Assembly: GCA_010093605.1 (NCBI GenBank)
Contig: MU004183.1
Location: 1-64,000 of the forward strand
Reading direction: 5' to 3'
From: Lophium mytilinum
Lineage: Eukaryota
Length of the DNA: 64,000 nt
The translations under genes were made by a program, and so were the position numbers. Shown here one piece after another: positions 1 to 30,575 of the stretch. The notes below the pieces were generated by a model. It saw only the letters and a list, made by a program, of their open reading frames with translations. It was not told the origin of the DNA and did not search any database. Every line of letters begins with the position of its first letter. Within the stretch, counting starts at the first letter, position 1.

Positions 1-3000
1 TAATAGTAAACTTCTAGCCAATTCTATATAAACGCGCTATTACCTGCTTCTTAATCTAAATAGAGCCTGCAGGGTTAAAAAGATATATATTATAATAAGT
101 AGACTATAGATTAAGCCTAGCTCTATTAGCCTAGTAACTAGTAATAAGGATCTTTACTTTAGAGTCGGGGTTATTAAATAATAAGATAAGGTTATCCCGG
201 TTAGTAGTAGAGAGATTGGAGGCTAGTATATAAGTATCTATTTTATAATAGTTAATAATCTTAGCAAGAATTATTTACTTATCTAGGTAGTTAGTCTAGA
301 TAATAACCTTCTCTATACGCTTAATAACATTATCGGCTAAATAGTATAGTAGTGCAGCCACTTTAGAGGTATTATAAATAAAAAGGGTAATAATATAATA
401 AAAGAGTGCGGACTTTACTTTAAAGTCTTTCTAATTAGGGTTAGTTTAGACATTCTTATTCCGGGTAATTTACTTTATTATGCCTCGCAAAACGTCTATT
501 TCCTTTAACTAGTAACCGCTATTATTCTTAAGAGGGATAATTTTTAGGCCGTTCTTAATCTTATTACCCTCTAAATCTAAGACCTTCTCTTGTAGATATA
601 CTATTATAGCGCGCTTAGAGTAGACTAAAAATAGCGCAGTATTTATAAGGTTAAGAGCACGCATAGAGCATACGTTAAATGCATAGATGCGCTAGCCTAC
701 GCGGTTCTTAGTAGAAACTATTAATAACTTAAGGTAGCTTAGCAATTTATTAGCATAGATAATATAGCCTAGTTTTATAGGCTGTAGCTTAATTACTCGC
801 GTAACTAACCGCGGAAGTAATTCTCTAATTTAGGTAGTAGAATTAGTAGAATTATTCAGGTATATAGAAGGGTATAAGCAAGTAATTATATACTTACTAA
901 AAATTAAGCGCAAATAAAGCCCCTATATAATCCTAGAGAAATATTAGAAAATTAAAGTAAATAAGAGAAGAGATAAGGGCCCTAGCTAGAAGCCTTTCTA
1001 CTAGGGCCCTTTATATAATAACTTACGGGTTAAATAAAGGTAGAATAAAATTTTTAAAAGCCTTGCGTGTATACTAGAAAATTACACCTAAATAGTTATT
1101 AGAAAGCTTAAATAGATTATTAGTACCTGGAATAAACTTAGCTTTACCGGGTTTTAAGCGGTACGTGCGGAATTATAGATGCTTATCTCTTAGTTCTATA
1201 AAAGATATATAAGTAGGCATATTAGTAATACCTATATATAGCAGGGTTCTACTATAGAGTATAGTAAAGTCTAAGTAAAGCTATAATATAGTTAGGTAGA
1301 GGTTTACTTAGTTACTTTTAATAAGCTAGCACTCGTCTATAAATTAGACGTTAAAATAGCTACTTAAAAGACCGGGCTAGGTGGAGCTTAGGTAATATTT
1401 AACCTAGTTCTTTAGCTTAGCAAGGTTATTATCGCTATACTACTTTAATGCGGGCTAGAAACTATACTAACCGGCTATTACTTAATAGCTGGCGATTATA
1501 ATACTCTTAGCATTTATCTTATTTTTAGTGTTAAATAAGGGATAGTCCCTAGTTAAGGTGTTATGTAGAAATATAGCGCTATAGAAAGCAACTTAGCCCT
1601 TTAATAAATAGATATAGAGCTTAAGTTTAGAACTAAACTTTATAAGTTTATTTACTATTTAGTGTACTAAAATAGAAGGCATAAGAAAAAGAAAGGGCTT
1701 TACTAGCCCGGGGTCTTTCTTATCTGCAACTTTGCGCTAGCGCTTAGCAATAAGCTATAATTAAATTAGTAGATGCTAAGAGAAACTATTAGGGGGGTAG
1801 TAGAAAGGCTTTCTATTAATACTCTTTAAAGAGAAATTGCTTATATATCTAATAAGGGTAGCTATTAAAAATATCTTTTTAATGCCAACCTTATCTATAA
1901 TTAAAGCCCTACTAAGAAAGCCTTTCTATATAATATAGTATATATAGTAAGCCCCGGTAATCTACTACTACCTTAAGTAAATATTACTATTTATTATAAT
2001 AAGGCGGGGTTCCCGATAGTTATAAATGCGTAGGGCCTTTATTGCTTCTTTAAGGTTATCTAGCTAATAGGCTTTATTAGTTATTAGAAGGCGGAGTATA
2101 CTCTATGTTGTAAGATCTACTATAGTTAGTATAGTAAAGGGGATAATATTCTTTATATTAATAGTAGTAGCCCTTATATTAGCCTCTATATCTTAGGCAT
2201 ATTTAATACCGTCTAGATTAGCGTACTTATCCTTATTTAAATCTGCAGCGCGCATATTTAGGTGCTATTTAATAGCATATATAAAATCTTCTACTATTTA
2301 TCTAATTACCTAATATGCGTTGTATTAAAACTTTAATAAGTTCCGGTTAATTATTACTCTAGTGCGCTTAGCATGCGTAATTACTAACTTAAGCTCCTAT
2401 TTTATAGTGCCGGTAATATACTTAGCGCTAGTAATATTAATATTGCCTTTCTCCTTATTAACTAGGTTTATAGCAATTTCTTCTTTAAATAACCCCTAGA
2501 TAGGGTTATCTATGTTAACCTCTATATTAATAGCTGCAAGTTCCTCCTTAGTAAAATAAGAGGGCGACTGCTAATAGAAAGGCCTAGAAGAGCCTTAATA
2601 GAAAGGCTTTCTATTAATATCCTTACTGCTATAAGTAATAGTTTTAGCCGGGGTCTTAGGTGCTAGTGCTAGACTAAGCTTTATTTTTTAAAGAACATTC
2701 TATATCTTAATTTAGTTCTTAGTATAGGTAGTCCTGCTAGCTTAAGACGGGCTACTCTTAAATTCTATATTTTTCTTTAATTTAAAGAAGATTCTAAGCG
2801 CTTTATTATTAGTAATATTAGCGCAGTTGTATAAAAACCTACTAAACCGCTTCTAGTAGTAATTAAAGTATTAACTAATAAATTAAGCTACCTAATCTAC
2901 GGGTTTATAGTTATCTATCTTAGGCTAAGAAGTAGTATATTACTATAGATTATGCAACTTACTAGTCTTAAAAGCATTTAGAATAGTAGTAAAACTAGCC

Positions 3001-3550
3001 CCTTAATTCTAACTATATACGGCGCGCTTTAGGTCTAAATACCTATCCTTATACTTATTCTAAATTACTTAGAAATTAGGCTTAGCTAGAATTACTTTAA
3101 GTTCTACTTTTATTTAACTATAAAGCTTAGCTAACTTTATTCTACTAGCATACAGCGTGTTTACTAAGGCCTATAACTTCTCTAACTCTTTATCTTTCCT
3201 ACTGCTAGTAACTAGCGCTTAAAGCTTTTCTTACTCTTTATTAGAGTTCTTAGGAATATTAGAGTTATTACTATAGTTATTACTATCTAGATAAACTACT
3301 TTACTATTTACTAATATAAGCGTCTTTAGATCTATTATAGTAGCCGGCTAATTACGCTTTAAATTAACATGGGCCTTAACCCCCGATTTAGTAACTAGTA
3401 GGGAGGTAGAATTTAAATCTTCTAGCACTTTAGAAGAAGTGGATAGTTTCTTATAGCTATCTACTAGGTTAGTTATAGGTAATATACGCAGGAATGCAAC
3501 CTTTACTACTGCTTTACTAGGGTTTCTATTACTTAAGGTATTTATAGCTA
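1..3550 (-). pseudogene. RIP-inactivated SNF2-family (SWI2/SNF2) helicase/ATPase gene; C-terminus runs off the window start
   Basis: Minus-strand translation gives a Q-motif LR***ITGA (LRWWQITGA) at ~1950-1980 and Walker A ALIIDKVGIKKI (de-RIP ALIADEVGIGKT) at ~1871-1910. Also motif Ia KPFLFLMPSILVH*, IIIASY*, and Walker B FNV*FIDEC*LIKS at ~1320-1355. The Helicase_C region reads SKVAALL..EKVII*, RDNLILLFNNPDSKVKILITSY, RLNL*S, LFNP, QVIARLYRIG* at ~10-370. Introns at 933-1026, ~1776-1844 and 2568-2626. The 5' end is approximate. Confidence 0.85.
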
Positions 3551-6500
3551 GCCTATTAATATATTAGCTTATCTTAAATAATAGAAAAAAAAAGGCAGGT
3601 AAAGGGCCCTAGTAGAAAGGCTTTCTACTAAGACTCTTTGCACTATACTAGGTATTTTTAGTATTATTATTTTCTTAATATTTTCTGCCGCCGCATCTTT
3701 AAAATTAAGGTAGACTAATCTACTAAGACTAGTAAAGAGCCCTAGTAGAAAGCCTTTCTATAATAATTTTTATAATACGCTTACCTTACTCTACTTTTAG
3801 AGAAATTGCGATGGAATAAACCTATTAGTAGAATTAGCTATAACGTAACTTAATTTTACCTACTAGATAGCAAACTTACTAAAAGGCTTAACCGCTAGCT
3901 AAAAAGACGCCTAAAATAAGCTAATTGCGGCTCTAATATAGCTAGAAAGCTGCTAACTATTATCTAGTAAGTAAGAAACTAGCGCGCAACCGTTCCGCAG
4001 GTAGCTAGATAAGTAGAAGTAATGGGGGTGCAGTAGTATAGAAGGAGAAGTTAGTATAGAAGTAAAGAAGTTAAAGCTACTAGGCGGTAGATAAGTTTAT
4101 AGGCGGCCGGGCTAATAGCCGCCGGCTGCTAAGACGCTAAGCCTTTAATAGTAAACTACTTAAGTTAACTCTTAAGATTAATATAATAGCTATATATTAT
4201 ATAAGGTTAAAATATCGCGGGTGTAAATATATTAGCGTTTTACTTAATTTTACTAATATATAAATATTTACGGTTAATCTATAATACTATACTATATATT
4301 ACCTAGTTCTAGTAATATAGTACTGCGCTAAGATAGGTTAATAGAACATTACGCGTTATTATATAACTATTTACCTATAGTATAAGGGTCTTGCTAGAAA
4401 GCCTTTCTACTAGAGCTCTTTACTACTTATATTAAGTATGCCTATTATTACCTCTCTTTTTATATATATTACTACTATATATCTACTAAATAAGTATTTA
4501 CATACTATATAAGAGCCTGGCTAGAAGCCTTTCTACTAACACTCTTTATATCTTATACTAATTACTTTACTATCTTCCTTATTAATAATTCTTCTTTGTA
4601 ATACCGCCTCTACTAGTCTACCTATTAACGCTTAAATCTATATGCTCCTTAGAACTCTTCTACTTAAGCCTTATTCTTCTAGGCCTCTTACCCTAAGTCC
4701 TCTAAGTCCTCTATTTCTAAGCTATAGTTACCTAAACTCTCTTTATACTTATACTCTTTATCTAATAACTAACTACTTATATCCCCCTCTTGCTCCTTCT
4801 ATATTACTAAATAATTCCGGAATTCTTTAATTATTAGAATTCTACCTAAATAAGCCCTTGGGCTATTTAGTATATAGTACTTAAACCTAAGCTAGATATA
4901 TTTTAAATTAACTTAACTCCTAGGGCCTATAATATTATCCTCTATTATTATTATCTTTAACTTTTCTAGGCTTCCCTAAGTTATATTCTATACTTCCTTT
5001 GCAACTACATCTATACTAAGGTTAACTGCCCCCCCTTAAGCCTATTCTTTAATATATTAGCTTAGTTAGGCTACCTTATAGTAGTAGCTATTTAGTAGTT
5101 ATATATAGATCTACTATATATTTATAATTATATCTCTTCCCCTAATATTATCTTATATATCTTTAGAGTTATTTTATTTAGCTTAACGCGTGGTTAAAAT
5201 TTTATTATTATTGTATCTTAGAAGAACCTAGAGTAATAAGGCGGCTCTTACTTATAGATTATTAAGGAATTATTCTACCGTTTTTAGTAACGCTTTGTTT
5301 CTAATTATTGCATTTAATCTTTGTAATTTTATATGGAAGGGACTATTATTCTATTTTTAAGTTTCTGCAGCTAGATCCGTAATGTTAAATAGCGGCTAGA
5401 CTTAATTAATCTAGCGTCTAGTTAAGTGCCTTAGATAATTTATATTACTATTTCTAGCTATATTCTATATATAGGTATAGCTTACTATAAGTTCTAACTT
5501 TCTATATAGCTTTATAAGTATATTAGAATAAAGCGTAACTATAGATCTATTTAGAATACTCTTAAGAAATTAGTTGCGTAGTTCTTTACTTTTCTATTAT
5601 ATCTTAGTATTTCCGTCTTCTTCTATATACTATCTACTTAGAAGCTTATATATATTAGTATAGTATACCTTAATAATAAGTGCAGCTGCCTTACCTATCT
5701 ATAGCGGTGCCGATTGCTAATCTTTTTATACTTTAGTCCTATTTTCGCGTTAAATAGCTAGCGTATACTATGCTGCAATACTATACTATAGATACTGCAT
5801 CTCTATATCCTCTCTAGTAAGAGATATTTAGATCCGAGCTTTAGTAAATATAGCTTAGAATTAATTTCTAAGGCCGGCTTGCAGTTAATTAACGCCTTAA
5901 GGGCTAAGTTATAGGGGCGTTATTATCTAATCTAAGTACTCTAACTTTAGCTAAGCTATACTATACTTCTTAAGAAAGTCTAATAACCTAAGGCTATATA
6001 AGGTTATAGAATTCCAGGGGTCTTTTTAATTTATCTACTCTTTTTTCTATAGTACGGATAATTAAGTAGGATTACTACATCTAGTAGTAATTTGCGCAAG
6101 GTAGATATAAAGAGATGCTAAATAACTATTTACTAGCTATTTATCTAGTATTGCTATATGCCTAGCATTACGCCTAGGGGTAACCTAAAGAGATAGTACC
6201 TGGAAAAGAAATACCTAGCAATTAAGGTTTACAATAGTAAAGGCATTAACTTCTTCTATAGAAAGAACCTAGTAGGGGTAATAAGGCTTGCTACTATTAT
6301 CTAGCCTATTCTTTATAGTAAATTCGGGACTTGCGCTTTCTTTAAGTTACTTAAGTATAGTAAAAAGTACTTAAAACTTAGTTTAAACCCTATAGGATAA
6401 GTGTCTATCTCTCTAGAGTATAGTATAGTGGCGTTAGAGAATAGTAGTAAGACTATTCTAAAGCTGTTTTCTTTTTAATAATTTTCTGGAGCTACCTGCT

Positions 6501-9500
6501 GCTTTAAACTACCGCTTAATTATTTTAGTTAAGAACGTAAGAGCTTCTAGTTAAGTATTATAAAAGGGCGTAATATCCTTAATAGGTAACTTAAGTATAA
6601 TCTTATTACTATTATAGATTTTATTGTATGCTATACTACTAATATAGCTATAGTTGCCTGCTTAGAGCTCTACTATTAGAGATAACGCGCCCTAGGTAAG
6701 ATAGTAGGGGTATAATATTATATAAATCTTTTCTTTTCCGCCATTATAGAAGTAAGTGGCCTAGTAGTTATTATAGCTAGTTTTATATAGAAGGGTAACC
6801 CCGGTCTCTAGCTAATTAGTAGTTGGGATATCTTTATATCTATAGTTAACCTATATCCCCTTATCTAGCATATTAATTAGGTTTTTATTAAAAGTAGTAG
6901 TTAAAGTATATAGTAGCTAATTTCTACTTTAAATTATACTTAAGGACTTATATACTATTTTTAGATTATAACCTAAAACTACTAGAAATACTCCTTTAAA
7001 TAAATCTTTAGGTATAGTATCTATTTCTATAAAGTTTTCTATATTATAAAGAACTTAGTTCTAGAATTCTTAGAGTTAATACTATAGAATTATATACTTA
7101 GTATTAATATAAGAGTCTCTAGATAATATTATATATTTTTCTTTCTTAACGCTTACTTTACCCCGTATAATATTAAAACTATATAGTAAATACTGCTACT
7201 TATTAGGTATTAGAGTATACTTTACTACAGGTAAGATAATATTATTAAGCTAAGCTACTTGCATTATATCTAGTAGATGCAAAGTATCGCCCTTCTACTT
7301 ATTTAGTGTTGGCATCTAGGGGAAAAATACGTAAGTTTTAAATTAATGCTTATACCTATACTTTATATAAAGCTGCTTTATTATATAGAGCTTATGGCCG
7401 CGTATTATAATGCGTTAGTTTTAAGTAATACTTTAGAGGAAGGATAGTTATAGAAATAGTAAGAAGTATAAATTATAGGCTGCTAAAGTAGAGATGCTAA
7501 TAATAACGCTATTAATATTATACACTCGCCGGATTTTAATCTCTTTGTTTACTATAAAGCTAGCTTTAGACCTTATAAAACTAAGCCTTAGAGTTTCTAT
7601 ATTACTAGTTTCTCCGCTTAACATTAATTTCTATAGGATATTATTAAAGTTGTTAGGATTATTCTCTCTCTATAATAGCTCTAGTTGGCTTATTAGATAG
7701 AAGGCTGTATTAGCTATAATAGGCTCTTATTAGGAGGGAAGGTTCTAAGCTAGGAGAAAGCTAGTAACTTAGCTAAGGGATCTACTCTAAGGAACTATTA
7801 TATAGTTACTTGCTATATTATAATATTAGCTACTATATTATCTAAATAGAAAGAGTTAAGATATATAGTAAGTATACTAGACTTCTAATGCTAATTAGAT
7901 TATACTTACTATATATAGAGTATTTACTAATAGATTATTATACCTATGTATATTAGCTTTATATAAACTATAGGGCTTATAATACTTGCCTATTAAAGTC
8001 TATCTTATTTATAACTTTATCTATAATCTTGCTATTGCCTTTACTATTTAAGACTATATTATCTACTCTACTGCCTTAATTCTCTAGTATAACTTTATTA
8101 AGTAAACCCGGTAATTTATCTATAGTATCTTGCTATCCTTATATATATATACCTTCTCTACCCTCTTTAACTCTATTATCTAATATCTTATCTATATCTG
8201 CACCTGCTTCTACCTTATTCTTAAGTTAGATAAATTCCTCTTCTACAACCTTAGTTACTGGCGTTAGGCGGAGAGATAATAAGGCAGCGTACTACTCTAT
8301 CTAAACCTAACTATTGTTGTACGCTAGTTATATAAACTAACTTATATTAGCTAGTATTTTCTCCTTATCTATTTATTCCGCAGCGTCTATTCTAGAGAGT
8401 ACTTCTACAGCCTTATTTTATTGCGCTAAGAATAATTCCACTATAATCTCTTTGTTAGTTATTTATGTAAGTATATAGAGTAGTAATATAGTAATAAGAG
8501 CTAGTATTTAGCGTTGTATTATTAGTTCTAGTTATATAGAAGTAGAAGCCGCTGTAGTTTATTAAGCGCATAAACTTGCGTATAGTATTATAGCCATCTA
8601 TAGAGTATTTTAGAGGGCAAGAATAGTATATACGCCTATATATATATATAGTATAGCTGCAGGTTTAAGAAATACTTTATAGAGATAGCGTATAGCGGGT
8701 AGAACCTAGCCCAGAGCTCTATTATTATTATTTGCGGCTTGCTAAGGTATCCCTATGCTAGAAAGTAGTAATAGAGAGGGTAATACCTCTCTAGTATCTA
8801 GAGGCGGTAGTAACGCAGGTATATAAGGAGATAATGCGGAAGATATAGGTAATAGCAACTTTAATACTACCTCTTCTACTTCTTTATCTGCTTAGGCTAC
8901 TTCTTTATTTACTTTACTTTCTTTAGCCGCTTCTTCTTCTTCTTTAACTGCTGCTCCCTTAATAGTTTATATAATAGCATACTTACTACTATTACTCTAA
9001 TCTTACTCTATAGCTTCTATTAATTCTATATTACTTTAAATTTTAGGTATATATTAGGCCGCTTTTAACTTACTAGAGCATATACTACTGCTAGTAGACT
9101 ACTAGGTATAAGAAAGTTATATTAGTTAAGTAGGTTAAGAGGTTAGAGAAGCGAGAGAATAAGTACTACTATAAGTAGCCCGCCCTAGAGTAGAATATTA
9201 GGTGGGTTTAGTAGATAGAGGAGAAGCGGTAGAATAGATACTACTATAGATAGACTACTATAGAGAAGTATATTATATAGGTTATATAGATTAGGTAGAT
9301 AGAGGAGGAATAGTAGAATAGGTACTACTATAAGTAGACCGCTGCGGAGGAGTATATTGCATAGATTAAGTAGAGGTAGAAGGTAATAATTCTTCTATTA
9401 AGACGGGTTCTACTTAAGTTTATTAGAACCTAACTGTAAATACTAGAAGATTATAAAAGATATACTAATTATAAGTTATATAATAGTTTCCTCTAAAGGC

Positions 9501-10000
9501 TTCTAAGGTGCAATTAGTTATTAAAAGGGCGTAGGCGCAGGGCGGGTAGAATAAGAGGCCCTAATATTTATACTAGAAAGACCTCTAGGGTTTTTAAAGA
9601 TAATTAGAAACGGATCTAGAATAGAAGTAGAAGTAGGCTTGCTAGCCTCTCCTGCTGTAGCTGTTTAGTCTATAGCTCTCTTCTTTTTATCTTTCTTGCG
9701 TTGGTTTAAATCTACTATTAAACGTAATTTAGCTGCTTTTTACTCTTCTTTATTCTAGTACTTTTAGGGGCGTCCTATGCTAACTACTAGGTATAGTAGT
9801 AAGGGGGATAATAGTTTAGAATATAGAGCTAAGGAGCGGAAAGTGGTTAGAGAGTATAATTAGTTAAAAATAAGGATTTATTAATATTCTTATTATAGGG
9901 CTTACCCCGCCTAACCTATTTTAACACCCCTTATAGATACTGCCACTTAGTTAAGGTTGCTAGGGAAGGGCCCTAGTAGAAAAGCTTCCTGCAGTAGCTC
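975..10000. repeat. Dispersed ~38-bp hairpin repeat, 9 copies (core AGAAAG(G/C)CTTTCT, arms like AAAGAGCCCTAGT...ACTAGGGCCCTT)
   Basis: Copies at ~975-1011, 1798-1827, 1903-1930, 2588-2624, 3601-3639, 3734-3762, 4384-4422, 4510-4548 and 9966-10000. Example: aaagggccctagtagaaaggctttctactaagactcttt (3601). Confidence 0.85.
4570..9778 (-). pseudogene. RIP-inactivated long ORF (~5 kb) of unknown function
   Basis: Starts (M)GRP*KY*NKEE*KAAKLR at 9778, followed by a low-complexity region with ~84-bp repeats at ~9150-9370. Globular-looking segments include RRVYNINSVII..TLAA, TYVFFP*MP, A*LNNIILP, AYNKIYNSNK..PFYNT*LEAL, Y*VLSIEEVNAF..NLNC*VF and LRLLDFLKKYSIA*L. Ends in an acidic tail. Boundaries and introns are approximate. 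Confidence 0.6.
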
Positions 10001-10379
10001 TATTAATTACTTTATCTATAAATATTATATAAACTATATCCTGCCCTTTACTTTATATATTTTATTTAATGCGGCTAAAATTTCTATTATATAAGAATAC
10101 TATCTAGTAGTAACCTATACTAAAGCAAGGCTATTATAACGCGAAACCCTTTCTATTATATCTATTACCCTCTATAGGTACCTACTACTAGGACTTTACC
10201 TTTTCTATAATGCTTTAAATTTAATTACATATACTATATATAGTATTATAGCTCTATTATAGTATCTTAATATCTAGAAGTTATTATATGCAGCGGTAGA
10301 AGGCTGCTTAATTATAGGGCTATACTCTACGCTGCTAGCCGCCCTCTTTTCTTACCCTCTGCATCTACCTAGAGCTATA

Positions 10380-10950
10380 ACTACAGCCTGTAAAATATTT
10401 CTAAATTACTAGAATGCTATTATATTATATAATAAGTAATTTTCCTTATAAATATTTTTAACCTTATATTATAGTAGTTCTATGCAGCGCTAGTTAAGGT
10501 CTTTATTAAGTGTAAGGCTAGTATTACGCTAAACTCTTTAAGTAACTTCTATTATTTAGGATCTTACCTCTATATATAACTGCTACTACTACTATAGCCT
10601 ACATATTAATTCTAAGTTAATAGATCGCTATTATATTATATATTATATATAATCCTTTATATATTTCTTCTATGCTATATTATAGTAGTTGCATGTAGTA
10701 GTAGTTATACTAATTCTTAAGTATAAGGCTATTCTTACGCTAAACCCTTTAAGTAATTTCTATTCTATACCTATGCACCCTGCAGCCTCTCTATATCTAC
10801 CTTAAGCTACTACTACAGCTTATAAATTAAATTAAAGTTAATAGAACACTATTATATTATATTCTAAGTATTATTCTTTATATATATACTCTATTTTACG
10901 TTGTAGTAGTTAAATATAGTAGTGCAAGGTTATACTACACGCAATTCTTA
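10380..10950. repeat. Three diverged tandem units of ~210-220 bp, possibly a RIP-degraded Cys-rich coding repeat on the minus strand
   Basis: The marker 'cta(c/t)agc...tag..(g/a)ctattatattatat' recurs at ~10381, ~10592 and ~10813. 'taaggcta.t.ttacgctaaac.ctttaagtaa.ttctatt' recurs at ~10513 and ~10724. Confidence 0.65.
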
Positions 10951-11009
10951 AAGGTTAATTTTCTCTATATTAAACTTGCTTCTCCCTACCTAACTCTAAC
11001 CCTCTAGCC

Positions 11010-13506
11010 CCTATAATATAGATATAGTAGTAGAGGGGGGCCTAGCTATAACTATATACTTAAACTTAGGTAGATTAGTAAGTAAATTATTAAATTCTAT
11101 AATAGCTAGTATAGCTATTAACTAAGAAGTACTATAAGTAATAGAACTAGATAGATTTAGGCGCTTAGACGCTAGTAAGTATTATAGAGCTATACTTTAT
11201 TATTCTTTCTATTTACCTCTATAAGCTATACCTATAGTAATTTTAAATAAAAATAGTTCTCTCTATATACTATTATATATATAGTAGCCCCTCTATACTA
11301 TAGTAGGCTAGCCGCGCCGGCACTTAATAATAGTAGGCTCCTCTATATTATTAAAAGGTCTAAAAGAAATTACCTACTATTATATTTCTAGCTAAGTAAA
11401 CTACTAATAGTAATCTATTTAATCTAATTATATATAGTATACTAGATTAAGAAAATTAGCTAGCGCTTAATATAGAGAATTATAAAGCTTATATATATAT
11501 AGTATACTAAAAATAGAATAGAATATCTATATATAGTTAAGCGGGTTATATTTATTTAATTTAGCCTTTTTTAATTACTTCTTAAGTAGCTTTAAATACT
11601 ACAGTGTAACTACCTAGAATAAATTATAGAATTTAACCTCTCTAATATTATAAGAAGTTCTAGCGTACTATATTACCTTCTAGTCCTTATACCTAAAGCG
11701 GCTAGTAAGAATAAGATTCTATATATTAAGAAGAATATTAAATAGATAGCTAGTTAATATCTAGAGAAAGCCCTTAAGCTAGCTATATGCGCTCTTATTC
11801 CGTAATATAATACTATAAGAAATTAAGTTAGTATTATATACCTCTACTACTTCTTTATTTCTTAGTTATTCTTTAAGCTATACTCTTACTTTCTTTAGCA
11901 CTACTTATTTAGCATGTATATAAACCCTGTGTAAAGTTTAGGCATTAAATTTAGATATTTTAGTATTAAGAAAAATTACTTATATAGTACTAAAGTACTA
12001 AGTATTAAATATATAGTAAGTTACCTATTTAAATCTATATAACTACTATTTCTCTACTATATAGGCTATAAGGTTAGGCCGCTTCTTATAGTTATTAAGT
12101 AGCTTATTCTAAGCCTTATTAAACTGCGCTATGCGCTCTAGCTTTATTATAGTAGTCTAATAGGTAATAAAATTACTCTTTTTCTTCTACTACTTCTTCT
12201 TCTTAGCTACCTGCTATTCTTCTATATTATTCTCTATTAGCGCATTAGAATAGCCTATAGGAAATATTAGTTTTACCTTATATATATTAACTAGCTTAGT
12301 ATTAATATTCTTTTCTATATACTATATATAGAGAAGGCGTATAACTCTAGGCTATTATATATATAGTATATTTATTAGAGCTTATTTCTTATCTATTAAG
12401 AAAACGTGTAAAGTAATAGAATAGTGCTTAAAGAGCTTAAAGAGCTATTATACTATCTAGTTATAGTTAGCCTTCTTCTTTATAGAAATAAAATAGTAGC
12501 TAATTTTATAGTTATTACTAGTATAGGTAATATTAGTAATATATAGAAAGGGTATACTAAATTAGTTTATTTTATAGGTATAATCTATTAATATAATATT
12601 ATAGTTTAATTAAAAAATCTTAATAGAATTTAGATATATAAAGAAGAGGTAATCTATATAGTACTATATATTTTTTATATAGCTATATATATACTTCTTC
12701 TTCTAGCTATTAGAAGAAGAAAATATAAAGGTTTCTAACGTGTAGAGAAGTACCTAGATAGGCGTAAGGCTACTAAGAAGCTTATTTTTATAGCGGGTTT
12801 ACTTATTTTAAATATTCTTAATAGTAATAGTTATCCTCTTTTTTAAAAGCTTTATATAGGTTTACTAAGGCTATAAGCTACTTAATATATTATTCTAAAT
12901 AAGCTAATTTATTAATAATAAGCGCTTTCTATTATATATAGCTACTATAGCTTTAAGTAAAGAGAGGTAATTATAAGTTTTCTCTACTATCTTCTATAGC
13001 TATATATATTTACTATTAAAGCTAGAAAGCTACTAAGTAAGTATACTATTTATCTTATAGTCTACTTTATTAGTAGAGGTACTATATATATATATAGTAG
13101 GCTCTATAGTACCTCTAAAGTAGTATTAAAACTAGATTTTCCTCTTTTTATAATCTATATTAACCTTTAAGTATATTTTAGTTAGGCTATAGCTCTATAT
13201 ACTTATATACTATATAAGCGCCTTTTTAGCTTTCTCTAGGCTATTATATAGCTATAATAGGGGCGGCTAGAGAGCTATAGTAAGAGGTATATTATAGAGA
13301 AAAAAATTAAAAATAAGGTTATAATTACTTATAGCTATACTATACTTAGAGAGAGTATTTAGAATTAGTAGTAAACCTAAGTAAGTAAATTAGAGGCTTT
13401 AGAGAACCTCTCCGGGCTAATTAGAAGATTAGACGTAAATGGGTATATATAGAGGAATTACACGGTATATATAGAGGAAAAACCCGGTGTAGGATTATTA
13501 GTCCCC
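11010..13506 (-). mobile_element. RIP-degraded Mutator-like (MULE) DNA transposon; one terminus visible, the other apparently lost
   Basis: Minus strand shows a FAR1-like N-domain (..RKI*F*YYFRG...STNKVDYK...TYNY) and the MULE core IDYTYKIN*FSIPFL (DCTYKTNRFGMP) at ~12550-12590. Also RLLYI*YIEKN (LLCxWHxEKN) at ~12305-12340, a SWIM-like FSILYIY (GxPCxH) at ~11490, and C-terminal EPTIIKCRRG*P. GGGGAC terminus at ~13506 with subterminal direct repeats (ggtatatatagagga x2). Confidence 0.8.
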
Positions 13507-13834
13507 TATATATATAGTAGGGACTTTTACTAAGAATTATATACTATGTTATACCCGATAAATAATAACTAGGGAGGCGCGCCTTGCTACTCTAGTACTG
13601 TCTCGCCACCACCCGCGCGATTTAGAGCTTCATGAACTTGCGCGACGTCGCGGCCGATCCTTGCGCTGACGGGGCGGGAAGGGTGGTCGCGATGTAACCT
13701 TAGACGGGAGATATGATTACAACTTCGGAACGACGCAGCCGTGCGCACTGCGGGGTCTTGGATCCACCGACACGAAGGATGGGGAACCTCTGCGAAGACA
13801 ACGGCGACAGCAAGTCGTCTTCACCATCGTCACC

Positions 13835-16492
13835 ATGTTCGACTTCGGGATCCGGACGACTTTGCCGTTGCTTGTGGGCTTCGCGATAGGGACACGAGCT
13901 CAAGAGGTCGACTACTCGCAATTCGTGAATCCCTTCCTCGGATCTGAAGGCGGAATCCCGGGCTATGCGTGTAAGGCACCAATGCCTCTCTACGACTTGA
14001 GGTCGTTGAACGAAGAGCTTGAACTAATGACTCCTTAGATGGCGGCGGCGACATCTTCGTCGGCGGCGCCGTGCCCTTCGGAATGGTAAAGCTCGGCCTC
14101 GACACATACGAAGAACCCGTCAATCAGAGCGCCCTCAATGGTGGATGGACGCCAAAGGGCAAGGTCACCGGCATCAGTCTGCTTCATGAGTCTGGCACGG
14201 GAGGAGGTCCCAAGTATGGGTTCCCTGCGCAGATGCCGTTGACGTCCATCGAAGCGCCGGTCAATCTATTGGACAATTTAACGTATTGGCAAAGCCGGGT
14301 TTGTGACAGCTCTCATCCCTCTCCTCGCTGAAGTCTGACATATTCTGAGGTCGGCGACGACGTAGCCAGCGTGGGATACTTTCGCACGCGTTTCGAATCG
14401 GGCGTCTCCGTTGAGTTATCTGCGACCAGGCATGCGGGCTTGATGCATTACACATATCCATCGTCTGAAAAACACGTTCTGGTCGACTTTTCACATTATC
14501 TCCCATATCCATCTCGCTCTTGGGACTCGCAATTTTATGCGGGGGGCGAAATCGAGATCCAGCTCAACTCTTCCACGTACACAGGCTACACGTCCATCGC
14601 AAACGGCTGGAATTTGGGTCCTCCGGTCACCGTCTATGTTTGCGGAGAGTTCAGTTCGCCGCCAAACGAAGCGAGAGCATTCAGTGGTCGCAACACCTTT
14701 CCGGTAGGACGCCATTTCAGAAGCTTCGATAATGCGACGACTCCCGAGCCCACATTCCGTGGCTCATCAGCCCGCTCGGGACCTACGTGTGATCGCGTAG
14801 GAGCCATTTTCTCTTGGAACGGCGCCAGTGGCAGCTCAGAAATCAAGTCTCGAGTCGGAACCTCCTTTATTTCCATAGACAAGGCTTGCGCGTACAAAAA
14901 CGAAGAGCTCGCATCTTGGGACATTGAATCGACTGCGCAAGCTGCACGTGATGAATGGAATCGCGACGTGTTCTCCAAGATCAAGGTATCACCAGAAGCC
15001 AACCAGACAAGACTTGCAATGCTCTATTCAAGTTTGTACTTTATGCATCTCATCCCGAGCGAGAGAGTAGGAGAGAATCCGCTCTGGGAAAGTGACGAGC
15101 CATCATGGGACGACTTCTATACTATGTGGGACCTTTTCCGCAATCAAGTATCGCTATGGCATCTCATCCAGCCTTCGTACTATGAGTCAATGATTCGTTC
15201 TCTTATCGACATTTTCAAGCATGAAGGTTTCATGCCGGATGGGCGAAGTGGAAATTACAATGGGCTTGTTCAAGGCGGTTCCAACGCCGACAACGTCCTG
15301 GCAGATGCGTATGTCAAAGGCCTTCGCGGCAAGATAAATTGGACGGAAGGGTACGCGGCGGTGAAAAAGAACGCAGAGGTCGTGCCATTCTTCGATCAGA
15401 ATCCCGTGGATCCTCAAGGCTCTCTGAAGGAGGGTCGTTCGGCATTGGACGACTGGATTCCGCTGGGTTATGTATCCGCAGATCGCAACTCGCGCGCCGT
15501 TTCGAAGACAGTGGAGTACTCGCTCAACGATTTTGCCGTGTCGCAAATAGCAGCGGGCGAGGCACCGGGAGATCACGAGCTTTACCTGCGTCGGTCTGCC
15601 GGATGGCAGCTCAGCTGGGATCATGATGCGACCGCTCGCAATTTCAGTGGATTCGTGATGCCTCGTTATGCGAACGGGAGTTTTCACCAAACATATAACA
15701 TCACGAATTGCGGGGAATGCAATTGGTCTGATGAGTCTTACGAGGGAACCGCCTTTGGTAAGTCGCTGTCCATTTCCTGCCCAGTATCATCAGTAAGATC
15801 GAGACCACTGATAGACTCCAGAATACTCCTTCGTTATACCACACGACGTGGAAACTATGATCCAGTTCATGGGCGGCCCGCAGCACTTTGAAGAAAGACT
15901 AGACTACGTCTTCCAACCCAACACATCCGGCGTCGATCTGGGAGTAAACGGCCTAGGGATCACGACCATCAACAACCCGTCTGACGAACCCGACTTCGGA
16001 ACTCCATACTTATACAACTACCTTAACAAACAGTATAAATCGGTGGAGAGGTCTCGCCAGATAGCAACTGACTTTTACTTCAATTCAAGCAATGGGATTC
16101 CGGGGAACTCTGACGCGGGAGCACTGAATTGCTGGCTCGTCTGGCAGATGTTGGGGCTCTATCCGGTCGTCACTACATCCGTTTATCTGCTCGAAAGCCC
16201 CTGGTTCGATGATGTCAACGTTACCGTCAATTACGACCGGACTTTACGAATTCGAGCTGAGGGCCTTGACGACGGGGATGGAAGGCAAGGCTACTACGTG
16301 CAGGGCGTGACCATCAACGGCAAAGTATGGAAGAAGAACTGGTTTGAGCATGGCGACATGGGAGGAATCATGACGGAAGGCGGCGAAATCCTATTTCAGC
16401 TGGGCACGGAGAAGAAGGTCTGGGAGACGGGTGATGTCCCGCCGAGCCCAGGGCATGTTGTTCTCGATGAAAATGAGAAACGATGGGAATAG
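13835..16492 (+). CDS. Secreted glycoside hydrolase family 92 (alpha-1,2-mannosidase-like), ~824 aa, 4 exons
   Basis: Exons 13835-13970, 14039-14298, 14350-15757 and 15822-16492 join in frame. Signal peptide plus VNPFLGS, GAVPFGMVKLG, HESGTGG, WDLFR, VQGGSNAD, SKTVEYSLNDF and PGNSDAGAL motifs. Confidence 0.95.
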
Positions 16493-18084: not shown

Positions 18085-18470
18085 CAGTGAAGGAACTAGA
18101 CTGGAGCCATTTAGACTAGAGCCGGATGGAGGCACTTAAAAAAGGCATTAGACTAGACTAAGATTCTATTTAGTTAGACTAGATTTAAGGCTATAAATAA
18201 TTCTAGAGCTCTAATACTTTTTATATATATAAATATATATATAGTATTAAGGTTAATTTTTATAAGGCTTAGCTTAGAGGTCTGCAATTCTTAGCCTCTT
18301 ATTAGTTAACTTATTCTATACTAACTAACTAGCTACTTAGTCTTACTATTCTTAGCCTTACTATTTTATACTTACTATAGTCTATATACTTACTATAATA
18401 TATATACTTTTTATTTTATAATATAGCCTTTCTATTTTACTTTACTAATAGATAGCTAAGAGGTTACGCA

Positions 18471-18670
18471 TGTTATGGCCACATGTTTATACTATAACAC
18501 GTGACTAGGGTTATATAATAGAGGCTCTATAGAATAGGTAAACGTTGCTCCGCCCTTTAGGTTATTATAACGTCCGTTCTAGAAACCTCTTCCTCTCTTG
18601 TATTTATCTTTTATTAATATTAATACTATTTAATCTAATAATTCCAACGTTCTAACCTTAAGCCCTAATA
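18471..18670 (+). repeat. 5' LTR
   Basis: TGTTATGGCC...AAGCCCTAATA, colinear with 26907-27106. Confidence 0.95.
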
Positions 18671-21600
18671 TAAGATAAATACCCTCCTAGCTTCCGGGAG
18701 CAATGGAAGTAACCCTTAGAAAAATTTTTCCGTAATAGAGTGCGCTTTTATAATAAGCTATAGTATACCTATACCTTTCTATATAGTAACTATTAGCAGA
18801 GTTGCGGACCCCTAATAAAGACTACACTAACATAGTGTTCTATTAGCAGTGCCGCGGGCCCCTAATAAAGCAATCTAACTATTATGCGCGATGTTAGATA
18901 ATAGACCTTATAACTATAGCAGACGCTCTATAATAAGCCCCTATAATAGAGGGGTAGTAGCAGCACCCTAGAAAGTCCCCACTAATTTATTAATTGCTTT
19001 AACGGCTCTATAACTTTATCTATATTGCTATTGCTGTATAGAGACTAACGCCTAGAAAGCTTAGTATTAATAATAGCGCGTGCGCGCGCCTAGTATTACT
19101 AACCGATTGCTATTACTATATAGAGACTGACGCCCGGAAAGCTTAGTATTAATAATAGTAAGCCTACACGCATACTTAGTATTATAGAATAAAGCCCTGT
19201 AGACTATCTATTTCCTATATACTTTCTATTATCCGCATACTACCCGTTTTATAAATAAACTAACTAACCTAATAATTTACTATAGCTAACCTCCGCAATT
19301 AAGCGCAACTAGCATACTTCTCTAGGACAACTCCGCAACTAACTGTAATAGATACTAGTTTCTTAAGCCTTCCACGCGCCAGCGCGCGTAGTAAATAACC
19401 TAAATTTGTTAATAGCTCGCATATAAATACGGCAGGTTGCCCTCTATAAGTTTTCTCTCTTATATACTAACTTTTCTATACCCTATTACATGGCTAACTC
19501 TAACTGCTATACTTTTAACTATGCTAAAGCCCTACAGTTTAGCAACTCTGTTTTAGGCGGACGCCCTCCCAGCGGACGCCCTCTTAGCGACGTTAATTAT
19601 ATCCTAATTAATCCTCGCCGCATTATATCGCACTAAGACGACGGTTCTCTTAACCTACGCCACCTTCTTACTATAGATAATAATAATAATATAACGCAGA
19701 TTAATTATAGCCTATAGCCTCCTCTTATTTAGCTAGTAAACCCACTATTATAAGGCGCGACTTAATCGTAGTTGTAAACTTTAGCTGCTACTTTCTAACC
19801 GGCTCTATCTATTAGACTAGTCCCTCCTGTAACGCCCGCTAAGCTCTAATATTATTAAACTAAGTTCGGTACTATAGGCAAGCCTCTACTAGTTACTCTA
19901 GCTCCTCTAGTAGAAACTACTGTAGAGGAGACCGCACTCCCGCTCTCCCGCGTTAGTAGCTATGTACTAGGCAACTTTAATTTACTAGATAGAATTAAGG
20001 ATATAACTACCGGCCTTAATAATATAACTGTCGCCTATAATAAGGACTCCTTCTCTAACTTTAACTCGGCCGATAAATATAACCGCCAAGAAGAGGAATA
20101 TTAGTTTAGTAGTAACGTAGATAATAAAGTAAATAAGCTCTAGATAGCCTACTAAGGCATTAATATTAATATTAATACTTCTAACGCAACGGCCTACTAT
20201 AATACTGCCTCTAGGCCTAACTATTAGTCCTGTAACCCTAACTATCTAAGAATAGTACCTTTTTATAGTAGGCCTTCCTCTAATATATCTCCCTTATAAT
20301 ACTAGTCTACCCGCATTAAGTCTATTACTAGATTTAACACCCCGGACCTAGCTTAGTAAGCAGCAGGCATAGAATAGAGTAATAAAACTAAGACTACTAT
20401 AATACGCGTTAAAGACCGTTAATAATTACGTCTTACTATTACTTAGCGTGCTAATAGCTCTATCTTTAAGATGCATTACGGAGATAGAGCCTATAAGTAA
20501 TATAAGCTACGGACCCTATAGAACCTTACTAATAACATCTAACTCGCACTATAATAGTAGTGGAACTATATTATATTAACTTACGCAGAATATAAAAACT
20601 ATAAATATAAAATAGACATTGCTGTATAAGAGTAAGACGCCGCCAATATTATAGTTATTAGCCTTAATAAGAAATACTCGCTTATAGACGGCAAACTCTC
20701 TAAGCTTTATATATAAGTTTGCACCCTAGGTAATACACTAGAAGCTAAGAAGGTAAACTTAGCACGTATATATTATAGACGCAATAAGAAACACGCCTAA
20801 TTCTAGGCTTAAATAGCTTAGCTTAACTAGCTAAATATTATACACTAGCGAGCCTTAGACTAAATTACTTAGCTTAAAGCCCAACTTTATTATAATATGC
20901 CGGCGGAAGGCAACCTACACGCTAACCTAGATAGACACCCATCTAATTATAACTCTACTAACGACGGCTCCCCTTCTCTACTAAAGGGACCGTACGTTCT
21001 CAACCTAGAGGACTTCTAGCGCAACTATATTCTAGCACAACACTTTACTACAGCTAGAGGTAGAGAAGAAGGAGGTAATTTTAACCTAAGTAGCTTTACT
21101 TAGCTATAGGTCTACGGGCCCGTGTATCCTTAATATAGATAATAAGGCCCTTAACCTAAGTATATACACCTATAGGACTTTAAATTAGGGGCGAAGGTAT
21201 ACGCGGTATAGAAGAACTATCTACTCTATTTAGTTTAGGTGGACTAATAGACCTATCCTAATACTATAACCTAAATCTAATTAGTAGTTAGCTATTATAA
21301 AGGACGCGCATATAAGGTTATAGAGGACCGCGGTTTACTTACATCTAGTAATCTATACCGTTTACTTAAAGAGCTTATCTAAGACCTAGACGCTGCATTC
21401 TAGGAAAATAACTCTATCTAACGTAACCGCCTTCTAGATTAACTTAATAGCAAAGGTATAAAACAGCGCCCTAATAAGTATATAGCTAACTTCCTCTAAC
21501 GCCTTAACGCAGTTCTTAATAGACTTAAGTACGACAAGACTAATAACGGACTTATAACCTAATACCGTTATCTTAAGGAAACGCTACGCATAGACCTTAT

Positions 21601-24600
21601 TAATTAAATTAACTTTAGACTTAAATCCTAGTACTAAGTAAAGGATAACGTTCTATATAAAGACCGGCATAGGCTTTAACGTAAAAAGCGCGCTAAAAAG
21701 GAGCTCCTTATAGTATAGAGTGCAGCACGCCGATTTAATAATATACACGGAAATAATAGCCGCTATAATTTAAACCGCGCTTAATACAAAGTATCTACTA
21801 CTAAAACTAATAACTATATTATAGTTAAGAAAACTACTATAGTTCTATTACTAAGCGTCCCACCGCATATTTGCATGCGCCTTACTAAAGAAGGGCGTTG
21901 CTTTAGTTACTTTAAGAAGAACTACCGCGTAGGTAATCTAGAGTGCCCTATGGCCGGTAAGACTATATTACAGTCTTAGCGCAATAAGCGCTTAACCGCC
22001 GCGGGCATTAATAATGTGGAACTTAACGCCTTTAACTATAATAGCGACGAAGAATGCCAGTATAAATATAAATACAACGATAAATAAGAATATAATAAGG
22101 ATAATTATAGAGCTTACTCTAATAGCTCGGGAAAAGCTTAATCTCTAATAAAAGTTATTATTAGAGATAGTTAGAAGACACGCTAGCTTAAGCTCTTGCA
22201 CATATCTAGGAGCTTAAGCTACCTTCTCTAAAGCCTCTAGATATTAAACTCTCTACTTGCGCCGTAGGACTTACCCTACTATCTAGTAAATAGATAGACT
22301 TCGACTATAAGATTAAAACTTTAACCGGAACGGTTAAATCTATTATCCTTATAGACTCTAGATGCGGAGGTTTTATATTTATATCTATAAGCTTTACTAA
22401 GCACTATAAGCTTAATATTTGTAAGGCTACTCTATAAAACGTTAAGTTACTAAATAGATCTATATCTATTATTAATAAAGTAGCCAAGGTTACTATGCAA
22501 ATTAATAGTTACTATAATAAATTTTAGACCCTAATCTACAACCTTAAAGGCTACAATATTATTCTTGGCATAGGCTAGCTTATTATGCACGACGCCTATA
22601 TAAAGTTCGGCACGCGCATAATATAACTAGATTCCGACTACTATTATTCTTAATGCCTTATTAACTATAAACTAGTTTACGTCTAGTCTAAAGACCCCGT
22701 CGCCCGCACTAGTAAACGCCTGTTTAAGCAGAAACTTAACGCCTAGCTTACCGCTTTTAAGGCGCTTAATATTAGCGCGGTATCTAGCAATAAGTACCTA
22801 TATAACGCCTAGTAATTACTAGAAGAAGACACTATCTATATATGGCCCAAGCACTTTAAACTGGCGCTTGTGGATAAGAAAGTAGAAGCCTAAGCGCGCG
22901 CTTAAGGACGGTTATATAGCCATAACATTATTATAGGCCTAGCTAATTTTACTACTAACCTAGCTGTAATTAGCCTCTATGCAATATCTAAAGACGACTA
23001 GCGGAAGTTCTTTAAGAAAATAGAGCGCAAGCTAATAACGCGCGATAAACTTAAAGCACTAGTACCTATAGAATACTAGGGTTTCCTTAACGTATAGGAT
23101 CTAAAAGAAGTAAATAAGCTTCTACTACGTCGCAAAGTAAAGAACGGTATAGATATTAACCACTATATTAATATTAAACTAGAAACTAAGGCACTAGCCC
23201 GCAAAGTCTATGGACTTTCACGAGACGAGACGCTAGTTATTAAAACGTTTATTAATAAGATGTATGGTAAGAGCTATATTAGGAAAAGTAATAGTTAATA
23301 TATAGCCCCTGTTATTATTATCCGTAAGCTAGGCGGAGGCCTACGCATTTGCGTTAATTATTAAGGCCTTAACGTGGTTATAATTAAGGCCTGGAACGTT
23401 CCTCCAGCTATAAAGGACACCTTAGCCTTACTTAAAAACGCTTGGTACTATACTAAGTTTAATATTATTACTACCTTCAACGCCATTTAAATGCGAGAGG
23501 GTAATAAAAAGTATACTGCATTCCTTATAAGATACAGTCTATTTAAATTTATAGTTCTCCCCTTTAGCTTATGTAATGCGCCGGCCACGTTCCAAGCCTT
23601 TATTAACGACGTCCTCCTGGAATACCTAGACAATTTCTATACAGCCTATCTTAACAATATTCTTATTTTTAGTAAGACGCTTAAAGAACACGTTGGTTAC
23701 GTTAAGAAGATCCTCTAGCAACTTTATAAAGCCGGCCTATTCCTTAATATTACTAAATGCGAATTTTATAAACAAGAGGTTAAATACTTAGGCGTTATTA
23801 TTAGCGTTAACGGCCTTAAAATAGATCCAGCCAAAATCGAAACAGTTATTAACTAGCTCTAACTACGGAACCTGCGGGACGTATAAGCGTTTCTAGGTTT
23901 CTATAACTTCTATAGACGTTTTATTATGGCTTACTTAGACATTGCAGGTCCTCTTACTAGGCTTACTAAGGCGGAAGTTCGCAAGTAGTTCGCTTTTCTA
24001 TAGTAAGAAGGCAGCTTAGAAGACTTCTCCTTTAAGTAAATAAAGTAGGCGTTCGTTAACGCCCTATAGATGGCTTACTTTAATCTAGATCTAGAGACGT
24101 AGGTAGAATGCAACGCATCTAATACTATTACGGCAGCTATACTATCTTAAATGCAGGCTAACGGTGTTCTACGTCCTATCGCGTTTATATCCTATTAAAT
24201 AAGTGCAGCCTAACTTAACTATTAGATTTATAATAAAGAACTACTAGCAATCGTCCGCGCCTTTAAGGAATAGCGCATAGAACTTACCAGCCACGGATAC
24301 GGTAATCTAATTAAAGTTCTTTTAGATTACTGCACCCTGCAATACTTTATGGAAACTAAGCAGCTTAACTAGCAATAGGCTAGATGGGCCGAGTTTCTTT
24401 CCAAATTTAACTTTTAAATTACTTACTAACTAGGCAAGAATAATGGCAAGGCTAATCTGCTAACTAGACGCCCAGGTAATATACTAGATTAAGACGACGA
24501 ACGCTATAAAATCTAACAGTAAACAATCTTAAAGGACTATAACCTAGAACTAGAAATGCATTACGCTATTAAACTAGCCTATATTATAATAGACGGCGTC

Positions 24601-26906: not shown

Positions 26907-27106
26907 TATTATAGCTACACGTTTGCACTATAACACGTGACTAGGGTTACGTAATAAAGGCTCTGCGGAACGGGCGAATGTTGCTCCGCCCTTTAGGTTA
27001 TTACAACGTCCGTTCTAGGAACCTCTTCCTCTCTTGTATTTATCTTTTATTAATATTAATACTATTTAATCCAACAATTCCAACGTTCCAACCTTAAGCC
27101 CTAACA
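26907..27106 (+). repeat. 3' LTR
   Basis: TATTATAGCT...AAGCCCTAACA. The differences from the 5' LTR that I compared are transitions. Confidence 0.95.
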
Positions 27107-28553: not shown

Positions 28554-28959
28554 GTATATACTATTTATACTTTCTATTTTTTTAATTAGCCTTACTATTT
28601 TATTAATTAGCCTTACTATTTTATAGTATATACTTTCTATTTAGCTATATACTTTCTATCTTACTATATACTTTCTATTTTACTATATACTTTCTATTTT
28701 ACTATATACTTCCCGTTTTACTATATAGGCCTTAATCTATCCTTTTAAATATAGAAAGGATAAGAATAGAAAGTATATAGTAAATAGAAAGTATATAGTA
28801 AAATAGAAAGTATATAGCTAAATAGAAAGTATATATAGTAAAATAGAAAGGCTAATTAATAGAATAGTAAGGCTAATTAATAAGAAGTTTAGCTAAAGCC
28901 CCGCCGGCCGGTTATATAGCTATAGCGCACCTCTATACTATATACTAACGCGTTAATAG
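28554..28959 (+). repeat. hAT transposase intron filled with an inverted array of ~19-bp minisatellite units
   Basis: Units like tatatactttctattttac at ~28560-28725 are mirrored by gtaaaatagaaagtatata at ~28765-28885. GT at 28554 and AG at 28958-28959 restore the frame into the TRWNS motif. Confidence 0.8.
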
Positions 28960-30508: not shown

Positions 30509-30575
30509 CTTTAGCGTCTCCGCTGAGAACCTTAAGTATGAGCGCGGGGTCGGTGTAGGCGGTTTCGGAGGGCAT
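30509..30575 (-). pseudogene. zf-MYND paralog A, 5' fragment (start codon) stranded beyond the hAT element
   Basis: ATG at 30575 reads MPSETAYTDPALILKVLSGDA. It joins in frame through the TSD to EARRVLDQLPKEEQ and aligns with the paralog C N-terminus MPPKLNPKDPDFMLRVMRGEAEAVKVYSALP. Confidence 0.9.

Follow-up and report, generated by a model that had tools for sequence, protein, structure and literature searches.

Short structured repeats are among the leading suspects for the origin of new introns in fungi, and they are also the usual handles for the proteins of mobile elements. In the parts of the published accounts drawn on here, introner-like elements (ILEs) of Dothideomycetes are whole spliceosomal introns present in hundreds of unrelated genes (PMC4457414), with a stable predicted secondary structure and a tendency to decay into ordinary introns (PMC3609843). 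The internally symmetrical sister introns and stwintrons of the Hypoxylaceae, as portrayed in the relevant part of their description, likewise occupy unrelated genes and are symmetric over their whole length, the two splice sites falling within terminal repeats of 45-55 nt (PMC8469720). The closest described host element is X3X3R8 of Parastagonospora (Stagonospora) nodorum, presented in the portion of the source used here as a multi-copy repeat of 26 kb that is affected by repeat-induced point mutation (RIP) and carries Rad5/SNF2-like helicase genes together with uncharacterized open reading frames (ORFs) (PMC3017866). Here, we analyze a 64-kb window of the Lophium mytilinum genome (contig MU004183.1, positions 1-64,000), to which all window-wide counts and absences below refer, and in which a palindrome of about 40 bp recurs within and upstream of a damaged SNF2-family helicase gene.

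One such palindrome marks every intron of this gene, which resides on a member of a large and poorly understood class of fungal repeats, the SNF2-helicase repeats, and the proteins of distant relatives suggest that the palindrome is kept there with compensating changes in its arms. We tentatively read it as a cis-acting DNA site that belongs to the element. If it is a functional site, it would offer a direct handle on the copying or control of SNF2-helicase repeats; if it is instead a private parasite, it would be a compact case of intron colonization that can be dated and counted across copies.

The palindrome and its copies

The palindrome is near-perfect and symmetric through its center. 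Each side runs from a T/A-rich end through a GGGCCC-type clamp and a CTAGTAG-type arm into the core, AGAAAG-S-CTTTCT, which has a single central base; described as a module, it consists of a G/C-rich clamp, a variable arm of 6-7 nt and a GAAAG-S-CTTTC core. Taken as a whole, its inverted arms measure 19-20 nt around one base, and in this respect it has the terminal inverted repeats of a miniature inverted-repeat transposable element (MITE). An nhmmer profile built from seven copies and run across the whole 64 kb recovered eight full copies and a partial copy in coding sequence, nine clear places that span 971-10003. These are given below with one additional partial arm; the RIP-tolerant pattern mentioned in two of the entries is explained after them.

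971-1016: palindrome in intron 3 of the SNF2 gene, the best-preserved copy (nhmmer E 4.5e-12)
1786-1830: palindrome in intron 2, with one arm eroded (nhmmer E 6.6e-11)
1902-1929, minus strand: partial palindrome in coding sequence, with the exact core and part of one arm (nhmmer E 0.002)
2568-2583: additional partial arm beside the copy in putative intron 1 (nhmmer E 0.51)
2584-2627: palindrome in putative intron 1 (nhmmer E 3.6e-10; one mismatch to the RIP-tolerant pattern)
3598-3642: upstream copy 1, first pair, immediately 5' to the SNF2 coding region (nhmmer E 1.8e-13; no mismatch to the RIP-tolerant pattern)
3732-3772: upstream copy 2, first pair, its center base inverted relative to copy 1 (nhmmer E 2.6e-9)
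4380-4423: upstream copy 3, second pair (nhmmer E 2.1e-11)
4509-4551: upstream copy 4, second pair (nhmmer E 9.8e-10)
9965-10003: degenerate copy, left arm intact and right arm different (CTTCCTGCAG type) (nhmmer E 6e-5; no mismatch to the arm pattern at 9966-9983)

The first-pass annotation of this DNA, made from the letters alone, had reported two pairs of copies between the genes, each about 130 bp apart, and a single copy at 9966, all of which are borne out. The centers of the first pair lie at 3620 and 3753, a spacing of 133 bp, and those of the second at 4402 and 4528, a spacing of 126 bp; the second pair is a tandem duplication (4357-4438 versus 4484-4564, 77% over 82 nt). All four copies fall within 1.1 kb upstream of the SNF2 gene, in its presumed promoter region.

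These copies are far more numerous than shuffled sequence would yield. Allowing at most one mismatch, the 13-nt core occurs at six sites (12 strand matches), compared with a mean of 0.25 in 100 shuffles, and two extra copies carry a 1-nt deletion (986-1000 and 4521-4535). A 33-nt pattern that tolerates RIP by reading G or A as R and C or T as Y gave five matches with up to three mismatches, and none in 100 shuffles. Between 14 and 64 kb, the profile found no match better than E 0.5: the palindrome is absent from the other ~50 kb of the window, including ~36 kb of GC-normal genic DNA, with no copies, and 13 kb of RIP-mutated DNA that is unrelated to the element but equal to it in RIP indices. 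A random scatter of the motif through RIP-mutated DNA, which would have spoken against the annotation's proposals, is therefore not seen in the window. A weak palindrome-like match at 6260-6300 (E 0.011) has CCTAGTAG / CTACTA arms around a different center.

The repeated unit itself is small. Pairwise comparison of all copies with 110-nt flanks showed that their likeness ends about 20 nt to either side of the center, indicating that the repeated unit is the palindrome alone. The exceptions are the tandem pair described above and a 20-nt flank common to the copies centered at 4402 and 2606; one flank of the copy at 4380-4423 is also similar (80% over 60 nt) to 2588-2646 in reverse complement. 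An arm-only search of the 64 kb found no solo arms, 12 of its 16 matches being arms of known copies and the other four, with 1-2 mismatches each, comparing with 2.6 expected by chance. No direct repeat common to the flanks of the eight copies was seen, in a TA-rich RIP context where palindromic ends hide short duplications such as TA. A search of 4500-14200 for long inverted repeats revealed no credible element termini, and a metagenome scan with the consensus palindrome pattern gave no matches.

The host repeat and its SNF2 gene

RIP leaves repeat copies that differ by C-to-T and G-to-A transitions, and is indicated by a TpA/ApT ratio above 0.89 and a (CpA+TpG)/(ApC+GpT) ratio below 1.03. With 30% G+C and values of 1.77 and 0.30, the region 1-13900 is a RIP-mutated repeat by both indices; the GC-rich blocks of the window show 0.57-0.79 and 1.18-1.21. 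A second RIP-like block at 18.1-31 kb resembles 1-13900, and the rest of the window is normal. On a larger scale, the layout is isochore-like: AT-rich RIP blocks (30-34% G+C; 1-13900 and 18100-31000) and blocks of 50-53% G+C, the latter with long ORFs, alternate along the window.

Of the words sampled from 1-4600, ~40% are present in two public DNA assemblies, X1 and X2, that derive from one sample. Across 1-10100, all 30 of 30 bins are covered by contig pieces with an identity of at least 80% (2847 from X1 and 2792 from X2), a density that identifies this stretch of at least 10 kb as a high-copy repeat family. Differences from the window over 1-10100 amount to 322 transitions and 5 transversions in X1 and to 311 and 5 in X2, with no insertions or deletions listed among the pieces, palindromes included. 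The palindromes were already in the element before it was amplified and mutated by RIP. Other genomic copies preserve older states of the motif: in one, the sequence just before 9993 reads as an intact core, and others show TTTGC as the earlier form of an outer arm at 3637-3641. In the copy before us, RIP blurs every TA dinucleotide, leaving the splice signals and the pre-mutation palindrome uncertain. One contig each in X1 and X2 joins 3112 to 5498, omitting 2385 bases that include the upstream palindromes; with just 22 nt on its shorter side, this joint weakly hints at a deleted form of the element.

The SNF2 gene and the interruptions in its reading frame are laid out as follows.

1-3398, minus strand: SNF2-family helicase gene, identified through homologues, RIP-damaged and partial, its 3' end beyond the left window edge
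933-1026, minus strand: intron 3, 94 nt, phase 2, GTAAGT...CTAAT...TAG
1776-1844, minus strand: intron 2, 69 nt, phase 0, donor ATAAGC, branch CTAAT, acceptor TAG
2568-2626, minus strand: putative intron 1, GTAAGG...TAG or CAG, 56 or 59 nt

Its exons run at ~3398-2627, 2567-1845, 1775-1027 and 932-1. A phmmer search with a stop-tolerant read-through against 1.84 billion representative proteins returned 16 matches, and tblastn placed P0001 on 3104-1821 (E 7e-21), P0002 on 1646-972, and P0010 on 2084-1485 and 394-2. A direct Pfam search of the long read-through gave no SNF2 match; the more distant, full-length homologues P0010, P0016 and P0013 carry both SNF2-rel_dom (PF00176) and Helicase_C (PF00271) and align to both lobes in the window, and a PDB search with 2-931 of the minus strand matched the Rad54-like structure 1z3i_X (E 1.4e-4) and yeast Snf2. 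Judged by the domains of its homologues, the host gene is an SNF2-family helicase.

By comparison with these proteins, intron 3 is solid: the reading frame changes across it, the junction restores a proline codon, the end of P0003 coincides exactly with that of the exon, and P0012 and P0015 carry on with what follows the intron. Intron 2 is supported by similar comparisons. Its donor, ATAAGC, looks like a GTAAGC changed by RIP; at the IS of the window (ATA AGC), P0001 and P0004 read VS, and they end 20-28 residues further on; P0002 and P0003 begin after the intron, and P0010 is shorter there. The claim of the first-pass annotation that a hairpin occupies each of three SNF2 introns holds as far as the copies are concerned, and the homologues back introns 2 and 3, but intron 1 is doubtful because its length, at 56 or 59 nt, does not fit the reading frame: it is no multiple of three, yet the low-stop frame is identical on both sides. 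Around this putative intron the homologues are too divergent for comparison. For the region at large, a map of stop-codon density did not separate the frames.

No further frame break is visible in the 3.4-kb gene, and each of its two or three interruptions holds exactly one palindrome. All full copies inside the gene sit in these interruptions, and the exons are free of full copies. The palindrome accounts for 41 of the 69 nt of intron 2 and for ~43 of the 56-59 nt of putative intron 1. In introns 2 and 3, the splice donors lie 12 and 9 nt outside the palindrome; the branch and acceptor parts are also outside it, and these splice-signal parts are mutually unlike. The outer parts of these two introns are not inverted repeats of each other, and donor pairing occurs only in intron 3, as a weak stretch of 6 nt. 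The donor of putative intron 1 overlaps the outer palindrome arm (arm match 2607-2624).

A partial copy does occur in coding sequence, as the annotation had proposed. The core at 1915-1927 is an exact 13-mer on the minus strand, read in the SNF2 frame as TAG AAA GGC TTT CTT (a stop followed by KGFL), nine codons before the damaged Walker A motif. It aligns without gaps to P0001 and P0004, with 16 residues in all three, so the coding copy is not an insertion. Changes from TpG to TpA can account for part of the likeness in its flank, and an exact coding 13-mer is unlikely to have arisen by chance (nhmmer E 0.002).

Little else in the RIP block could be named. Across the six read-through frames of 1-14000, Pfam gave only a sub-threshold match, to the MULE transposase domain PF10551 at ~12342-12594 on the minus strand (E 1.2e-5; 26.1 bits, just short of the 27.6 of the gathering threshold), a position within the AT-rich block of the SNF2 gene; on this MULE-type lead, the parts of the literature on Leptosphaeria repeat families covered here held nothing that bears on the palindrome. 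A PDB sequence search with the six frames of 4600-10100 found nothing at E <=0.01, with a positive control on an SNF2 exon that worked. The block also contains tandem arrays at 9146-9375 (three units of 71-84 nt) and 10356-10923 (three units of 211-221 nt), the first of which translates on the minus strand into a Ser/Thr/Tyr-rich repeat.

Palindromes in relatives and possible roles

Two fragmentary homologous proteins read through the introns in question: in tblastn, the alignment of P0002 leaves exon 3 in frame and extends into intron 3 up to 972, and that of P0004 does likewise from exon 2 into intron 2 up to 1797. Their tails can be read back into nucleotides. That of P0002 is compatible with a perfect palindrome of 41 nt (arm 20), and an arm of at least 20 was possible for 9 of 400 random 240-residue peptides of like composition. 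Wherever the amino acids dictate the bases, the two tails agree on a GAAG-S-CTTC core and have a G/C clamp; their arms differ from that of the window and from each other, yet stay symmetric. In distant relatives (31-60% protein identity between relatives), the tails point to palindromes built alike in these two introns, a point not made in the first-pass annotation. As far as two protein tails can tell, the relatives seem to keep a like palindrome in introns 2 and 3, which suggests that the palindrome is old and holds its place in these introns while both of its arms change together.

Other proteins provide leads of a similar kind. Residues ~63-79 of P0001, the N-terminal peptide SPPTGLRALPEAQSED, could be encoded by a perfect palindrome of 47 nt (arm 23), an arm length that none of 400 random 240-residue peptides reached; this peptide may stem from an upstream palindrome that, in the relative concerned, was taken for coding sequence. 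P0006, with 522 residues, is composed of 77-residue tandem units that each contain WKPS, which fits the GGAAGCCTTCC core, and it resembles 2544-2732 of the minus strand, that is, the end of exon 1 and putative intron 1 (single-unit E 0.002 to 4e-7, with biased composition). As a lead only, P0006 may be a tandem array of the palindrome module in another genome. A protein index search for longer relatives of P0001 found none, one with the alignment of P0001 and P0004 returned P0001 only, and one near P0002 returned no protein but P0002 and P0005, which are JGI hypothetical proteins from contigs 1.2-1.3 kb in length. A metagenome locus scan with the alignment of P0002, P0005 and P0003 produced 392 pattern matches and no confirmed relatives.

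The reading that we favor, though with somewhat less than even confidence, is that the palindrome is a cis-acting DNA site owned by the element and either bound by a dimer or extruded as a cruciform. The module would belong to a single high-copy, RIP-inactivated repeat family of at least 10 kb that carries the SNF2 helicase gene, and would persist only in the non-coding DNA of the element, with one copy per intron, four upstream and at least one further. There it would present a two-fold symmetric DNA site, possibly as a cruciform, to a dimeric protein from the element or the host, and this binding would control the expression or copying of the element. A site for a dimeric protein encoded by the element had already been suggested in the first-pass annotation, and its confinement to the repeat within the window, its palindromic center, and its apparent place in the same introns of relatives, with a conserved core, are consistent with that suggestion. 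We favor a DNA site for several reasons: the copies are restricted to this repeat family in the window, all lie within 971-10003 and far exceed chance; they predate both RIP and amplification; full copies avoid exons; four stand in the presumed promoter region; the core is conserved across lineages; and the repeated unit is the palindrome only, with no solo arms. In addition, the symmetry runs through the center with a spacer of 1 nt, a feature that an RNA stem-loop does not need but that a two-fold DNA site, or an origin by fold-back, would provide.

Several observations weigh against this reading. At 19-20 nt, each arm is long by the standard of transcription-factor sites, and a role as transposase ends is unsupported because the copies are not at visible ends of the element. 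The presence of one palindrome in each small intron is not predicted by a DNA-binding site and better fits an intron-linked role. The support from relatives consists of the back-reading of two protein tails, of which that of P0004 allows an arm of 17, a length of at least 17 being reached by 31 of 400 null peptides and hence not significant alone; the P0001 tail allows arms of 11-13 only. Finally, the arm sequence is common to the copies in this element and different in relatives, which points to turnover or gene conversion and would equally be explained by a selfish repeat.

A selfish repeat is the strongest of the alternatives. In this scenario, a self-propagating mini-palindrome, MITE-like or introner-like, would spread within the element family by insertion, fold-back copying or gene conversion, a possibility that we regard as unlikely but serious; the same holds for its corollary, that the palindrome is retained only where it is harmless, in introns and upstream DNA, and may have founded or enlarged introns. 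Consistent with such a repeat, nothing beyond the palindrome is repeated, most sites having flanks unrelated to one another; some copies are partial or in tandem (2568-2583; 4357-4438 / 4484-4564); and the lineage-specific arms are what turnover predicts. Without their palindromes, intron 2 and putative intron 1 would fall below a length that can be spliced, and the donor of putative intron 1 falls within an outer arm. However, the flanks show no consistent target-site duplication, and there are neither solo arms nor copies outside the element in 50 kb. Random insertion would be unlikely to hit every one of the two or three tiny introns of the gene and to do so again in the corresponding introns of distant relatives, and a neutral palindrome should have lost its symmetry over the divergence that separates these relatives. 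The first-pass annotation had also raised an introner-like element that created the introns; the share of intron 2 taken up by the palindrome and the arm-borne donor of putative intron 1 speak for this idea, but it is weakened by the end of likeness at about 20 nt from the center and by the position of the donor, branch and acceptor parts of introns 2 and 3, which lie outside the unit and are unlike each other.

A role in RNA appears less probable still. Here, the palindrome would act as a hairpin in the pre-mRNA of the element, either masking or presenting splice signals, as in regulated intron retention, or yielding small RNAs that act on the element, in which case the 13-nt coding match could be a small-RNA target. 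The distribution within the gene is suggestive, with exactly one copy per intron and, in the coding region, the core and part of one arm. Splice signals touch the stem in each case: the outer arm contains the donor of putative intron 1, in intron 2 the 3' clamp borders directly on the branch CTAAT, and the GUAAGU of intron 3 is paired into a stem extension in the best fold of this intron, whose energy of -26.8 kcal/mol was equaled by none of 200 shuffles. The arms also differ among relatives yet stay complementary, the usual sign of selection on pairing. Nevertheless, palindromy includes the would-be loop, as RNA function does not require, four or five copies lie upstream or between genes, and no Rfam family matches 1-14000 at the gathering threshold. 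The hairpin character of the motif, as first annotated, is evident in its palindromic copies but is largely gone from the predicted RNA folds of this RIP-eroded element: only two of nine tested segments fold better than shuffles (intron 3, z -3.57; 3590-3650, z -2.40), and the other seven, with z from -1.28 to +0.47 (the intron 2 copy at +0.27), do not, so that most copies here are hairpin relics. RIP has eroded these copies and has hit their two arms unequally.

That the copies reflect chance, or a RIP-driven convergence of AT-rich sequence with no biological unit behind it, is barely credible, for although RIP lowers sequence complexity and may generate part of the flank likeness of the coding copy, no shuffle in 100 reached the observed counts, the other RIP block (18.1-31 kb) is without copies, and the G/C-rich clamp is the opposite of a RIP product.

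Comparison with described systems

As a host element, X3X3R8 is of the same kind as the repeat in our window, the two being likened by description rather than by sequence, and the words "palindrom", "hairpin" and "intron" do not occur in the main text, supplements aside, of the report on it (PMC3017866). Like the ILEs, to judge from the parts of their descriptions considered above, the motif examined here is a short, intron-sized sequence that recurs in near-identical copies; unlike them, it is an internal palindrome of 40 bp without splice signals in introns 2 and 3, with copies outside the gene as well, all in one repeat family. We did not see the whole-intron unit with its own splice signals that would mark an introner proper, as only the doubtful intron 1 has its donor in an arm. 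With the sister introns of the Hypoxylaceae, the motif shares inverted repeats that meet at a central palindrome, a predicted hairpin, no consistent flanking duplication and no Rfam match, as far as the relevant part of that description goes (PMC8469720). It differs from them in that only the middle 40 nt are symmetric and in the sequence of its core, and introns 2 and 3 do not have terminal repeats that include both splice sites, setting them apart from introns of this type.

Our search, which lay outside subscription journals and supplements, found no paper on a palindrome common to all introns of a repeat-borne SNF2 gene. Among binding sites for element proteins, the subterminal repeats of En/Spm-type transposons offer one comparison: 12-bp motifs bound by the transposase TnpA are present there in many copies and both orientations, overlap the promoter, and cluster at the element ends. 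In the present case the copies, perfect palindromes of 40 bp, lie in the interior of the element and are found in introns as well.

Palindromic minimal MITEs, such as human MADE1, and the bacterial REP and REPIN sequences consist of two abutting inverted repeats, are 35-80 bp long, are frequently paired and have the potential to fold into hairpins. The REPs, which are prokaryotic, are tied to one dedicated transposase. Compared with these, no target-site duplication, dispersed copies or cognate transposase were identified in the window, where all copies lie in one repeat, and neither dispersed copies nor a parent element with the same ends, as expected of a MITE, came to light there. By analogy, and as a long shot, the palindrome and the SNF2 element might form a eukaryotic counterpart of the bacterial pairing of REP and transposase. 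A protein of the element, for which the domain-less N-terminal part of the SNF2 protein (~580 residues) is a candidate, would recognize the hairpin or cruciform, and the arms would co-evolve with this protein in each lineage. A module that landed in coding DNA would then seed a short intron, and putative intron 1 would have been caught midway through this process.

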